A stretch of 60,030 bases of DNA from Escherichia coli. Its GTDB lineage: Bacteria; Pseudomonadota; Gammaproteobacteria; Enterobacterales; Enterobacteriaceae. The stretch lies in the NCBI RefSeq assembly GCF_003334405.1, contig NZ_QOWM01000020.1. One strand, written 5' to 3'. The position numbers and the translations under genes were made by a program. The notes below the pieces were generated by a model that saw only the letters and a program-made list of their open reading frames with translations, was not told where the DNA came from and did no database searches. How positions within the stretch are numbered: the first letter of the stretch is position 1; each line of letters opens with the position of its first letter. Below, one piece after another: positions 1 through 7,183 of the stretch.

Positions 1-898
1 GTGGCTTGCGCAGTGCGGGCTGACGGTGGAGCAACTGGCCAGACAGGTGGAGCCGGAATACACACCGGCGCGAAAAGCTCATCTTTATCACTGCGACCAC
101 CGGGGACTGCCGCTGGCGCTTATCAGCGAAGACGGCAATACGGCGTGGAGCGCGGAATATGATGAATGGGGCAACCAGCTTAATGAGGAGAACCCGCATC
201 ATGTGTATCAGCCGTACCGTCTGCCAGGGCAGCAGCATGATGAGGAATCAGGGCTGTACTATAACCGTCACCGGTACTACGATCCGTTGCAGGGGCGGTA
301 TATTACTCAGGACCCGATGGGGTTGAAAGGGGGATGGAATTTATATCAGTATCCTTTAAATCCACTACAACAAATTGACCCTATGGGATTATTGCAGACT
401 TGGGATGATGCCAGATCTGGAGCATGTACGGGGGGAGTTTGTGGTGTTCTTTCACGTATAATAGGACCAAGTAAATTTGATAGTACTGCAGATGCTGCGT
501 TAGATGCTTTGAAAGAAACGCAGAATAGATCTCTATGTAATGATATGGAATACTCTGGTATTGTCTGTAAAGATACTAATGGAAAATATTTTGCATCTAA
601 GGCAGAAACTGATAATTTAAGAAAGGAGTCATATCCTCTGAAAAGAAAATGTCCCACAGGTACAGATAGAGTTGCTGCTTATCATACTCACGGTGCAGAT
701 AGTCATGGCGATTATGTTGATGAATTTTTTTCAAGTAGCGATAAAAATCTTGTAAGAAGTAAAGATAATAATCTTGAAGCATTTTATCTCGCAACACCTG
801 ATGGACGATTTGAGGCGCTTAATAATAAAGGAGAATATATTTTTATCAGAAATAGTGTCCCGGGATTGAGTTCAGTATGCATACCGTATCATGATTAA
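1..898 (+). CDS. rhsD: Rhs-family protein, 3' portion (gene continues upstream of window): conserved Rhs core end followed by a ~168-aa variable C-terminal toxin domain
   Basis: Frame is open to base 1. Translation carries the conserved Rhs core-end block ([13 protein letters not shown]...[13 protein letters not shown], PxxxxDPxGL hallmark) then unrelated tip sequence. Locus assignment to rhsD is by synteny with ybbC/selU/allS. Confidence 0.75.
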
Positions 899-937
899 TT
901 TTAGTGCTTTTATTAGTGGGGCCTATAAGGAGATTCA

Positions 938-1306
938 ATGAAATATAGTTCAATATTTTCGATGCTTTCATTTTTTATACTATTTGCCTGTAATGAGACA
1001 GCTGTTTACGGTTCTGATGAAAACATTATTTTTATGAGGTATGTGGAAAAATTACATTTAGATAAATACTCTGTTAAAAATACGGTAAAAACTGAAACAA
1101 TGGCGATACAATTAGCTGAAATATATGTTAGGTATCGCTATGGCGAACGGATTGCAGAAGAAGAAAAACCATATTTAATTACGGAACAACCAGATAGTTG
1201 GGTTGTTGAGGGAGCAAAGTTACCTTATGAAGTTGCGGGTGGTGTATTTATTATAGAAATTAATAAGAAAAATGGATGTGTTTTGAATTTCCTACATAGT
1301 AAATAA
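938..1306 (+). CDS. ybbC: Rhs-associated immunity protein (YbbC-like), 122 aa, N-terminal signal-peptide-like segment
   Basis: Small ORF immediately 3' of the Rhs tip, the typical toxin-immunity arrangement; hydrophobic N-terminus [10 protein letters not shown]. Confidence 0.65.
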
Positions 1307-2016
1307 TGCTGGCGCTGATGGATGCGGATGGAAACATTGCGTGGAGCGGGGAGTATGATGAGTGGGGCAACCAGCTGAATGAAGAGAACCCGCATCACCT
1401 GCACCAGCCGTACCGGCTGCCGGGGCAGCAGTATGATAAGGAGTCGGGGCTGTACTACAACCGGAACCGGTACTACGATCCGTTGCAGGGGCGGTATATC
1501 ACTCAGGACCCGATAGGGCTGGAGGGGGGATGGAGTCTGTATGCGTATCCGCTGAATCCGGTGAATGGTATTGATCCATTAGGGTTAAGTCCCGCAGATG
1601 TAGCGCTAATAAGAAGAAAAGATCAACTAAACCATCAAAGAGCATGGGATATATTATCTGATACTTATGAAGATATGAAGAGATTAAATTTAGGTGGGAC
1701 TGATCAATTTTTCCATTGTATGGCATTTTGTCGAGTGTCTAAATTAAATGACGCTGGTGTTAGCCGATCGGCGAAAGGGCTGGGTTATGAAAAAGAGATT
1801 AGAGATTACGGGTTAAATCTGTTCGGTATGTACGGCAGAAAAGTAAAGCTATCCCATTCTGAAATGATTGAAGATAATAAAAAAGACTTGGCTGTAAATG
1901 ACCATGGGTTGACATGTCCATCAACAACAGATTGCTCAGATAGATGTAGTGATTATATTAATCCAGAGCATAAAAAAACGATAAAGGCTTTACAAGATGC
2001 TGGCTATCTCAAGTAA
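1306..2016 (+). CDS. Orphan Rhs C-terminal fragment (YlbH-like): Rhs core-end remnant plus a different ~142-aa toxin tip
   Basis: Repeats the Rhs core-end block ([14 protein letters not shown]...[13 protein letters not shown]...[13 protein letters not shown]) at ~85% nucleotide identity to 128-360, then diverges. ATG overlaps the ybbC stop. Confidence 0.7.
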
Positions 2017-2026
2017 TCTATCAAAG

Positions 2027-2257
2027 ATGATAATATTTATTTTTGCTATTATAATCATTGTTGTTTTATGCGTAATTACTTATCTTTATTTATACAAAGA
2101 TGAATCTCTTGTAAGTAAACATTACATAAACTATATGGCAATACCAGAAAATGATGGAGTTTTTACATGGCTCCCAGATTTTTTTCCGCACGTAGCGGTG
2201 GATATATCAATATACACAAATGTAGAAGATGATTATTTTTTTCTTATTTTTCCCTAA
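2027..2257 (+). CDS. Putative immunity protein for the orphan Rhs tip (YbbD-like), small membrane protein
   Basis: ORF directly after the orphan tip; strongly hydrophobic N-terminus (MIIFIFAIIIIVVLCVITYLYLY). Alternative start at 1997. Confidence 0.5.
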   Translation: MIIFIFAIIIIVVLCVITYLYLYKDESLVSKHYINYMAIPENDGVFTWLPDFFPHVAVDISIYTNVEDDYFFLIFP

Positions 2258-2289
2258 CAAATGATGATGGGGGTAGGTTTAAGAAAACA

Positions 2290-2487
2290 TTGACAGTGAG
2301 GGCCAGGGAACAAGTGGCGAAAATCGTATCAAAGAATGATCCAGATACAAAAAAAGTGTGGTGTAAATATGGTAAGATACCAGGGCAAGGGGATGGTGTA
2401 AACCTTTTTTTTGTTGGTGAAATTAATGTTACGCATTATTTTATAACAAATATTGGAGCTGGATTGCCTGATGCTTGTGCAGAGTAA
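2290..2487 (+). CDS. Hypothetical small protein (65 aa), possibly a remnant of another immunity/orphan cassette
   Basis: ORF only; AT-rich Rhs-accessory context; no recognisable motif. Confidence 0.2.
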   Translation: MTVRAREQVAKIVSKNDPDTKKVWCKYGKIPGQGDGVNLFFVGEINVTHYFITNIGAGLPDACAE

Positions 2488-3001
2488 TTGCTTGAATTAA
2501 GAGTCTATCCCATATCGAAGTCGTCAACTTCGTAGTGAGGAAAAGTAAAATTCCTGACTGAGAAAAGACATGTCGGCTATTGTGTAAAGCCATATAGCTC
2601 AGACGATGAATATCTACTCGTATTCAGTTGTTTATTGAGGGTGAGTTCCGACCCTGAAACAACAAATAAAATGAACAGTCAGAGAGTTTACATAGAATTG
2701 CACTGGTCTTTTACGATATCTGACATTGTGTAATACATATTCAGCCATGCATTAATTAAAATGTTACGTGTTTAATGTGAGTCCCTATCTGAAAATAAAT
2801 AATCCTTCCGGATTAAAATAAATTCTTGCCGGGAAAGAAAGAGGAAATAAACCATTAGCGGAAAACCAGCGGCACGCCAGGGTGACATGCCCCAGTACGG
2901 CGGCCCGATAGTCCAGGGTTCAGCGGGGGTACTGATAGTCGCGCCGACTGCATCGAGAACTCCATACAACTTTTTACGGAACGTCACCTGATAAAATTTG
3001 T

Positions 3002-3409
3002 TCAGTATCGTCTTTTGAGATTCTCAAGGTTATGGAGTAACCAGACAGAACGGACACCACTGTCGGAGATAAAAACCCCCTGTTTACGCAGCTCGTTGCT
3101 GGCCCGGTGCTGACCATGTGTCGGGAAAGCGACGGCGTAATCAACAACAGCCTGTTCAGTTGCCTCATCGGTACGGTTCTTAAGGTTAGGAGCGCGGCGA
3201 CTACGATTAATCTGCGCATCCACACCGCCTTCAGCGACCAGTTCGCGGTAACGATAAAACGTATCACGCGAAACGCCCATGATTTTACAGGCTTTTGATA
3301 CGTTGCTGAGTTCTTCAGCCAGATTGAGCAAACCGGCTTTGTGTTTGATGACGGGATTGGCAGTATGAAGCATGAGAGTTACCTCTTGTTTTGGATAAGG
3401 ATTCGACAC
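3002..3409 (-). pseudogene. ylbG: Truncated transposase-like HTH protein fragment (YlbG-like), degenerate IS remnant
   Basis: 135-aa ORF with an N-terminal HTH resembling transposase N-termini (GVSRDTFYRYRELVAEGGVDA ... ELRKQGVFISDSGVRSVW); the reading frame breaks and continues in other frames (2772-3267), with no intact catalytic domain. Confidence 0.5.
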
Positions 3410-5807: not shown

Positions 5808-6290
5808 ATGAAACTTCAGGTATTACCGTTAAGTCAGGAAGCCTTTAGTGCTTATGGCGACGTAATCGAAACGCAGCAACGGGATTTTTTCCATATTAAC
5901 AATGGCCTGGTGGAGCGTTACCACGATTTGGCGCTGGTTGAGATTCTTGAGCAAGACCGTACGCTTATCAGCATTAACCGCGCGCAACCGGCGAATCTGC
6001 CGCTGACCATTCACGAACTCGAACGTCATCCGCTGGGTACTCAGGCCTTTATCCCGATGAAAGGTGAGGTGTTTGTGGTGGTCGTGGCGTTAGGTGACGA
6101 CAAACCAGACCTGTCAACGCTGCGGGCGTTTATCACCAACGGCGAACAGGGAGTGAATTACCATCGTAACGTCTGGCATCACCCACTTTTCGCCTGGCAG
6201 CGCGTCACCGATTTTCTGACCATCGATCGCGGCGGCAGTGACAACTGTGATGTTGAAAGTATTCCTGAACAGGAACTCTGTTTTGCGTGA
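5808..6290 (+). CDS. allA: Ureidoglycolate lyase
   Basis: 160 aa; synteny between allS and allR. Confidence 0.9.
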
Positions 6291-6367
6291 CGCCTGCAAC
6301 CGACTTGCATAAGATAAACTAATTGTTCATTGTTTATGCTCACTTGTAGGTCGGAGTTAACGTAGGT

Positions 6368-7183
6368 ATGACGGAAGTTAGACGGCGCGGCAGGCCAGGA
6401 CAGGCGGAGCCTGTGGCACAGAAGGGCGCACAGGCGTTAGAGCGGGGAATTGCGATTCTGCAATATTTGGAAAAAAGTGGGGGAAGTTCGTCGGTTAGCG
6501 ATATTTCTCTCAATCTGGATTTGCCGCTCTCCACGACCTTTCGCTTGCTGAAGGTTTTACAGGCAGCGGATTTTGTCTATCAGGACAGTCAATTAGGCTG
6601 GTGGCATATAGGATTAGGTGTCTTTAACGTCGGTGCGGCGTACATCCATAACCGCGATGTCCTCTCCGTCGCCGGGCCGTTTATGCGCCGCCTGATGTTA
6701 CTTTCCGGCGAAACGGTCAATGTCGCGATCCGTAACGGCAATGAAGCGGTATTAATTGGTCAGTTAGAGTGTAAATCGATGGTCAGGATGTGTGCGCCAC
6801 TGGGCAGTCGTCTGCCACTGCATGCTTCCGGTGCGGGCAAAGCGCTGCTTTATCCGCTGGCGGAAGAGGAGTTGATGAGCATCATTCTGCAAACCGGTTT
6901 GCAGCAGTTTACGCCAACTACGCTTGTGGATATGCCCACCTTGCTGAAGGACCTGGAACAAGCGCGTGAACTGGGCTATACCGTAGATAAAGAAGAGCAT
7001 GTTGTAGGTCTGAATTGCATAGCTTCAGCAATTTACGATGATGTCGGTAGTGTTGTTGCCGCTATCTCCATCTCCGGGCCTTCATCAAGACTGACAGAAG
7101 ATCGTTTTGTCAGTCAGGGTGAGCTGGTCAGAGACACCGCCCGCGATATCAGCACGGCGTTGGGACTGAAAGCACATCCATAA
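6368..7183 (+). CDS. allR: IclR-family repressor of the allantoin regulon
   Basis: 271 aa; IclR-type N-terminal HTH and C-terminal effector domain. Confidence 0.9.

Follow-up and report, generated by a model that had tools for sequence, protein, structure and literature searches.

The 60,030-nucleotide (nt) stretch of Escherichia coli DNA analyzed here (contig NZ_QOWM01000020.1 of assembly GCF_003334405.1, hereafter the window) is 100% identical over its first 6 kb to the genome of E. coli K-12 MG1655, and its positions 1306-2487 are the K-12 orphan Rhs toxin/immunity module ylbH-ybbD. The first gene of this module, designated rhsH in PMC9948719, is an intact, in-frame open reading frame (ORF) of 236 amino acids (aa) on the plus strand (1306-2016), and the exact protein is recorded on at least 1000 contigs. 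RefSeq labels ylbH as a partial RHS repeat-associated core domain protein without its N-terminus, and treats the gene as a pseudogene beginning at position 1330. In MG1655, the locus reads rhsD-ybbC, a partial 'RHS repeat-associated core domain' gene, two small 'hypothetical' ORFs, ylbG, mnmH (selU), allS and allA.

The ylbH gene lies downstream of a full-length rhsD and its companion ybbC, and encodes neither an Rhs body nor an Rhs N-terminus. Residues 1-94 of its product correspond to the end of the Rhs core, matching positions 1169-1261 of NF041261 (E 2.2e-50) and the complete TIGR03696 model (positions 1-76 of 76, 85 bits). This core remnant (1308-1587, plus strand) ends in the PxxxxDPxGL motif (1546-1587), and is followed by a C-terminal tip of 142 aa (residues 95-236; 1588-2013, plus strand) that resembles serum amyloid A (SAA) in Pfam and profile searches, in its structural model and in its conserved residues. 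G+C content is 57% in the core region (1301-1600) and 29-37% in the region spanning the tip and ybbD (1601-2600), and a low-G+C tip following a richer core is the usual arrangement in Rhs proteins. The initial annotation of this locus had proposed an orphan Rhs tip starting at position 1588. The presence of rhsD-ybbC immediately upstream, the missing Rhs body and the low G+C content all bear this out, and the tip does begin exactly at 1588, right after the PxxxxDPxGL remnant.

The same annotation had pointed out a spacing pattern reminiscent of SAA in the tip, while cautioning that it might be coincidental, and had suggested a profile search and a structure prediction as checks. The only meaningful Pfam match for the tip was the SAA family (PF00277), with an independent E-value of 0.0013 when searching with the whole ORF and of 3.6e-4 when using residues 95-236 alone, and with tip residues 17-107 aligning to positions 9-84 of the 102 in the model. 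A single-sequence phmmer search against the PDB returned only SAA chains, with weak scores (E 0.3-1.5). Taken by themselves, these single-sequence scores could reflect a random pattern in a helical, low-complexity tip, but the family-level evidence leaves hardly any room for such a coincidence. When 1.84 billion representative proteins were searched exhaustively with HMMER, 92 relatives were recovered at E<=0.001, many of which form the C-terminal ends of RHS proteins as long as 1935 aa. An alignment (A1) was compiled from 67 tip-domain sequences, whose identity to the query averages about 25-55%. The profile derived from this alignment matched eight distinct SAA sequences in the PDB (E 3.8e-15 to 7.8e-8), with no non-SAA match below E 0.07, and 47 of the 67 relatives matched the Pfam SAA model independently (best E 1.5e-26).

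Structure prediction led to the same family. A template-free AlphaFold model of the tip, with a predicted local distance difference test score (pLDDT) of 95 and a predicted template modeling score (pTM) of 0.88, is predicted to contain four long helices (residues 2-33, 39-51, 56-78 and 90-108 in tip numbering) and a short fifth one (116-123). The top seven Foldseek matches of this model in the PDB were human SAA1 or mouse SAA3, all with probability 1.0 and target TM-scores of 0.68-0.74; nothing credible was retrieved beyond SAA, the list falling off to noise. Agreement with SAA also extends motif by motif, encompassing a shared DKYFH motif, a (K/R)E pair and the helix H4 stretch E-D-x-x-x-D-x-A-x-N-x-x-G (EDSLADQAANEWG in SAA). 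With profile, fold and conserved residues in agreement, the tip is a bacterial homolog of SAA and the suspected spacing pattern reflects true homology; a chance resemblance is ruled out by the profile search, the Pfam matches of the relatives and the fold search.

Homologs of SAA in bacteria have been placed in the Lipocone superfamily, which unites Wnt, SAA, TelC, VanZ and other families (Burroughs, Nicastro and Aravind, eLife 2025, PMC12419801). Within it, the prok-SAA family is used as a polymorphic-toxin tip, and is predicted to act on phosphate-linked lipid head groups (PMC12419801). The predicted Lipocone active site comprises a His in H2, a Glu in H3 together with an acidic residue near the H3 end, and an Asp in H4, to which the SAA-Wnt clade adds an sNxxGR motif in H4 (PMC12419801). 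The tip is 60% and 63% identical to two entries in the Prok-SAA table of that study (HAU8267270.1 and WP_074823867.1, respectively), which does not contain the exact K-12 sequence, and it is a member of prok-SAA within the Lipocone superfamily.

The putative catalytic residues of the tip map, in tip numbering, to His43 (1714-1716), Glu70 (1795-1797), Asp100 (1885-1887) and Asn104 (1897-1899) on the plus strand, with Asp73, Asp96 and Gly107 as further predicted active-site residues. In alignment A1, D39, H43, C44, E70, D100, N104 and C116 are invariant, and M30, C48, D73, D96, G107 and C120 are conserved in at least 90% of the sequences. Among these, H43, E70, D73 and D100 are each kept in 97-100% of the relatives, and fall in the matching helices of the model. 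The region equivalent to the sNxxGR motif reads V103-N104-D105-H106-G107-L108 and retains the small residue, the Asn and the Gly, with the Asn present in all 67 relatives and the Gly in 66. Judging by this alignment, the K-12 orphan tip keeps every residue predicted to be catalytic in prok-SAA. The tip also presents conserved cysteines at positions 44, 48, 110, 116 and 120.

The second gene of the module, ybbD, is not a single intact ORF in the window, but is split by the deletion of one T. Its N-terminal fragment (1997-2257, plus strand; NF011297, NF011298) encodes 86 aa, comprising a membrane helix at about residues 11-33 and the 'YbbD head', and overlaps the toxin stop by 20 nt. The 86-aa ORF scores 193.9 bits against NF011297 (cut-off 173) and covers positions 1-85 of the 163 in NF011298, while the ORF at 2290-2487, in another frame, covers positions 99-163. 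The deletion maps to a T7 run (2236-2242, plus strand), where the resulting -1 frameshift truncates ybbD, and adding one T (T8) restores, by reconstruction, a continuous YbbD of 163 aa. The out-of-frame C-terminal half (2243-2487, plus strand; NF011298) contains the conserved Cys123 and Cys161; RefSeq annotates only 2314-2487 of it as a 'hypothetical protein', compared with 2290-2487 in the ORF list. In the initial annotation, an ORF at 2027-2257 had been said to start with a single strongly hydrophobic helix. The helix is clearly present, with a Kyte-Doolittle mean of 3.37 over 19 residues (residues 12-30), but the likely start is the ATG at 1997 rather than 2027, in agreement with the RefSeq annotation and the conserved N-termini of homologs, and the ORF is not the whole gene.

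The restored YbbD is predicted to consist of a membrane helix and, after it, a domain of mixed alpha/beta fold (model pLDDT 86). Precomputed tables record the PF26610 domain (YbbD_head) on members of the YbbD cluster, and a Pfam scan of the restored 163-aa protein returned nothing, using a library that apparently did not include PF26610.

Genes of the YbbD type are found directly after SAA-like tips at loci L003-L008 and L012 of other genomes, with tip identities to the K-12 sequence ranging from 43 to 100%. The downstream protein has 173 aa and a PF26610 domain in L004-L006 (tip identity 56%), whereas YbbD homologs of 168 aa and 171 aa follow the tips of L007 (50%) and L008 (46%), and a 151-aa protein with PF26610 follows that of L012 (43%; hhalign probability 95%, E 2.2e-8). 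These downstream candidates are only 22-32% identical to YbbD, and YbbD homologs share the anchor, W58, F63-P64, C123 and C161. The persistence of this linkage down to 43% tip identity supports a putative role for YbbD as the cognate immunity protein, and is in line with the earlier suggestion of a membrane-tethered immunity candidate: the family is predicted to be membrane-anchored and follows related tips elsewhere. The immunity proteins of Lipocone toxins are reported to be, without exception, either anchored in the membrane or lipoproteins, and a 'TM+Imm-SAA' partner is listed beside prok-SAA tips (PMC12419801).

The ORFs that follow the more distant tips (34-38% identity) of L011 (3039-3626) and L013 (7573-8106) carry lipobox-like signals, LSGC and LSAC. 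The L013 ORF also displays a motif (GWIPxxLPxSAxNI...NLDVN) that recalls the YbbD head, with weak profile matches. Neither was counted as YbbD (profile E 0.045 and 0.0022, probability 1% and 13% for L011 and L013, respectively). A contig look-up for P0066 had nothing recorded.

The features of both genes suggest a mechanism of action for the module. Once recombination through the 280-nt core patch has placed the tip on a complete PAAR-Rhs body, a type VI secretion system would deliver it into a neighboring cell. There, it would attack a phosphate-linked lipid head group, either as a hydrolase or as a transferase, from the periplasmic face of the inner membrane. The likely target would be lipid II or another undecaprenyl-linked precursor, as for TelC, a lipid II phosphatase whose toxicity is confined to sites outside the cytoplasm (PMC12419801). 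YbbD, anchored in the inner membrane and exposing its folded domain to the periplasm, would bind the tip and block it there. By analogy with TelC, the tip is probably an enzyme that acts on lipid head groups in the periplasm. The periplasmic site of action is inferred from the four near-invariant cysteines, the outward-facing immunity protein and the restriction of TelC activity to the outside of the cytoplasm; the four cysteines, which are absent from animal SAA, would fit folding in an oxidizing compartment.

A different mode of action is conceivable, in which the tip is not an enzyme but, like animal SAA, binds lipid or membrane through amphipathic helices, and kills by disturbing or permeabilizing the inner membrane, with YbbD shielding it. 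The fold does match SAA structures that bind lipid and retinol, YbbD is anchored in the membrane and catalysis in SAA families is a prediction throughout. However, the invariance or near-invariance of seven polar or small residues (D39, H43, E70, D73, D96/D100 and N104) in relatives with no more than 25-40% identity suggests an active site rather than a surface for lipid binding, and the hydrophobicity of the tip is low (maximum 19-residue Kyte-Doolittle mean of 0.55), as befits a soluble domain. We therefore consider a non-enzymatic tip rather unlikely.

Many Rhs tips are nucleases, and the tip could instead be a cytoplasmic enzyme, such as a protease or nuclease, exploiting the adjacent His43 and Cys44. 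Both residues are invariant, and Pfam returns a weak match to Peptidase_C7 (E 0.02-0.064). This match is not significant, is seen in at most 3 of the 67 relatives at E<=0.1 and has no fold support, the fold search finding only SAA; Peptidase_C7 was hence discarded as an assignment for the tip. The conservation of the cysteines as a set of four or five, typical of disulfides, and the predicted export anchors of the immunity partners also argue against cytoplasmic activity, which appears very unlikely.

Returning to the lipid head-group toxin, its deployment would depend on the acquisition of an Rhs body. Over 280 nt, the core remnant shares 80% identity with positions 112-391 of the window, at the 3' end of rhsD, and the longest stretch of perfect identity measures 34 nt. 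On sequence grounds, this 280-nt remnant constitutes a homology patch for recombination with rhsD, which is the recombination partner of the orphan. The product of such a junction is present at locus L003, where an in-frame Rhs body is fused to the exact tip at the same chromosomal site. Strains E2863 and E2865 carry the same fusion, but a G7 instead of a G6 splits the body from the tip; the corresponding G6 run in the window (1524-1529, plus strand; alignment A4), at the core/tip junction, is in frame. The break lies around positions 6320-6330 of L009 and L010, and the ORFs in L010 comprise a body of 1256 aa and a tip of 151 aa. Seven PAAR-Rhs proteins with an SAA motif have been described in O157:H7 (PMC7216683).

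The module of K-12 lacks an Rhs body, and H-NS and StpA have been found to cover ybbC-rhsH-ybbD, a stretch that is free of transposon insertions. E. coli K-12 is not known to have a type VI secretion system. A scan of positions 800-3000 for promoters and terminators detected no more sites than in shuffled sequence, and hence provided no evidence of a separate promoter for the orphan. The ybbC stop overlaps the ylbH ATG in the sequence TAATG (1304-1308), and this overlap implies that the 236-aa orphan protein could be translated by coupling from an rhsD-ybbC transcript. The lack of an Rhs body and the H-NS/StpA cover indicate that the K-12 module is apparently a silent reserve.

The split in ybbD is widespread. 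Both the 163-aa YbbD and the 86-aa K-12 form are recorded on at least 1000 contigs each, and a survey of 5426 complete E. coli genomes, 2326 of which carry the segment, identified 1414 exact T7 and 529 exact T8 alleles. Other strains are in frame at this first T run but shifted at a second one (T8 in the window; 2405-2412, plus strand), giving rise to 149-aa products (P0034 and P0046 sequences), and the 86-aa form is also found in Hafnia alvei.

This distribution might indicate that the 86-aa YbbD is functional, either because the helix and head suffice for protection or because slippage of RNA polymerase or the ribosome on the T run yields the full-length protein, effectively providing an on/off switch. 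The head is the best-conserved part of YbbD and is modeled by Pfam as PF26610, T7 is commoner than T8 in identical flanks, and E2863 and E2865, which share the same layout, differ solely in the first T run over 1.1 kb of aligned sequence. The occurrence of the 86-aa form in Hafnia alvei and its pairing with the in-frame fusion of L003 point in the same direction. Conversely, the truncation would remove four of the seven strands modeled for the periplasmic domain and both conserved cysteines. At least three frameshift states are distributed over three runs (G6/G7, T7/T8 and the second T run), a pattern that is expected from the mutational decay of unused AT-rich DNA. A functional 86-aa form thus seems unlikely. 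A broader version of this idea, in which the three homopolymer runs constitute a heritable or slippage-bypassed on/off switch that toggles both the SAA-like toxin and its immunity protein, with the related possibility that the 86-aa head-only form works, is one to which we give little credence. Simple decay at mutational hot spots ranks first as the explanation for the homopolymer frameshifts, and a toxin target outside the cytoplasm could explain how the immunity gene decays without cost. For the observations that fit decay less well (the L003 fusion, the T7 majority and the Hafnia alvei form), it is possible that the toxin is not deployed, that the head alone protects or that slippage bypasses the frameshift.

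Overall, the data make it likely that ylbH-ybbD is a silent K-12 reserve module, with an SAA-like tip that would act as a toxin on lipid head groups and YbbD as its periplasmic immunity protein, and that it could be deployed by recombination. Several observations weigh against this interpretation. The Arg of the clade motif is replaced by Leu108 in the tip and is present in only 8 of the 67 relatives; most have instead a hydrophobic residue followed by Cys-Pro, and some members of the Prok-SAA table (PMC12419801) likewise lack the motif Arg. The lipid head-group activity of prok-SAA is inferred from a published prediction (PMC12419801) and from analogy with TelC. YbbD is not named in that study, which describes a four-cysteine domain as 'Imm-SAA'; furthermore, proteins encoded behind tips of 38% identity or less match YbbD weakly or not at all, and the YbbD model had no significant match in the PDB (best DcrB, E 0.63). 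Lastly, the in-frame Rhs-tip fusion of L003 adjoins a truncated 86-aa ybbD, which would be unexpected for a toxin that is deployed and requires full-length YbbD.

Among known systems, the closest is the prok-SAA family itself, which has its domain in common with the tip: both show the helical core and the short fifth helix, and conserve His, Glu, Asp and Asn-x-x-Gly at equivalent positions. Their use also coincides, as an RHS polymorphic-toxin tip with membrane-anchored immunity partners (PMC12419801). The K-12 tip differs in having Leu and Cys-Pro in place of the sNxxGR Arg, a sub-type common to most of its close relatives. The RhsD protein of O157:H7 EDL933 (z0651), encoded at the same rhsD locus, has an SAA-like C-terminus according to its published description, on which this comparison is based (PMC7216683). 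That C-terminus was modeled in 2020 on human SAA1 (4ip8A, TM 0.623), with PF00277 hits reported in PAAR-Rhs proteins, and the SAA motif was read as a possible modulator of host immunity, not as an antibacterial lipid-targeting toxin (PMC7216683). In contrast with EDL933, the K-12 tip is a detached orphan located behind an rhsD with a DUF4329 tip and ybbC.

TelC and TipC of Streptococcus intermedius belong to the same superfamily (PMC12419801), and likewise combine a tip acting outside the cytoplasm with a membrane-tethered, extracytoplasmic immunity lipoprotein. TelC, however, is a member of the prok-TelC family, with a clasp element, and is delivered on an LXG protein by type VII secretion; its activity is experimental, whereas that of the K-12 tip is predicted, and no sequence match between the tip and TelC was seen. 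The animal SAA proteins (SAA1, 4IP8; SAA3, 4Q5G/6PY0; PF00277) have a homologous helical bundle, but are secreted acute-phase apolipoproteins of about 104 residues with no Rhs context. They lack the four conserved cysteines and the cysteine-rich C-terminal extension of the tip (residues 109-142), and their identity to it in structural alignments is 16-20%. The tip is thus a homolog of the animal SAA family, and not a member of it.

Orphan Rhs toxin/immunity modules have reportedly been characterized by Poole and colleagues in 2011 and, in Salmonella, by Koskiniemi and colleagues in 2014. The K-12 module resembles them in its truncated core ending in PxxxxDPxGL, its AT-rich tip with a dedicated immunity gene, its position downstream of a full rhs gene and the ability of the tip to replace the main tip by recombination. 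It differs in that the immunity gene is frameshifted and in that some natural recombinants are frameshifted at the core-tip junction.

Much of this is already known. The K-12 genes are annotated, a 2020 paper noted the resemblance of E. coli RhsD tips to SAA (PMC7216683), and a 2025 study described the toxin family together with the chemistry predicted for it and its membrane-anchored immunity partners (PMC12419801). The present analysis adds the assignment of the K-12 orphan to prok-SAA with all its predicted catalytic residues intact, the pairing of the tip with the YbbD family, and the exact ybbD frameshift and its frequency. SAA is a major human acute-phase protein whose biochemical role is still unclear, and it has been proposed to descend from bacterial toxins that cut lipid head groups (PMC12419801). 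K-12 carries an intact-looking prok-SAA domain with an immunity partner that is one base away from whole, so that the published prediction for the SAA family could be easily tested in a standard strain. The locus is unremarkable as a genome finding, and is mainly of value as a practical entry point for experiments on the chemistry proposed for the SAA family.

The genes surrounding the module conform to the K-12 arrangement. The 3' end of rhsD (26-898, plus strand), a gene of 4281 nt named in the MG1655 annotation that lies directly upstream together with ybbC, comprises the end of the Rhs core (NF041261 positions 1141-1261) and the main RhsD tip. This tip (395-895, plus strand) maps to DUF4329 (PF14220, E 5.5e-38), regarded as an RNase domain in work on enterohemorrhagic E. 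coli (PMC7216683). The ybbC gene (938-1306, plus strand) is the immunity gene for the RhsD tip, annotated as an NTF2-fold immunity protein of the YbbC/YhhH family. None of the orphan tip, YbbD, YbbC or the RhsD tip matched a PADLOC defense model.

Stacked orphan modules are apparent at L004 (CP029992.1), where a TseH (PF25218)/Imm58 (PF15581) toxin/immunity pair (5933-6667) immediately follows the SAA-like orphan with its YbbD gene, and Ntox16 and DUF6714 ORFs precede this pair, together forming an array. Downstream of ybbD in the window, positions 2854-2949 (plus strand) encode ISGKPAARQGDMPQYGGPIVQGSAGVLIVAP, a near-match to the PAAR-like N-terminus of RhsD (MSGKPAARQGDMTQYGGPIVQGSAGVRIGAP). 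This stretch is the 5'-end stump of another rhs gene, and ends beside the ylbG fragment, which encodes a transposase-like helix-turn-helix on the minus strand (3002-3409).

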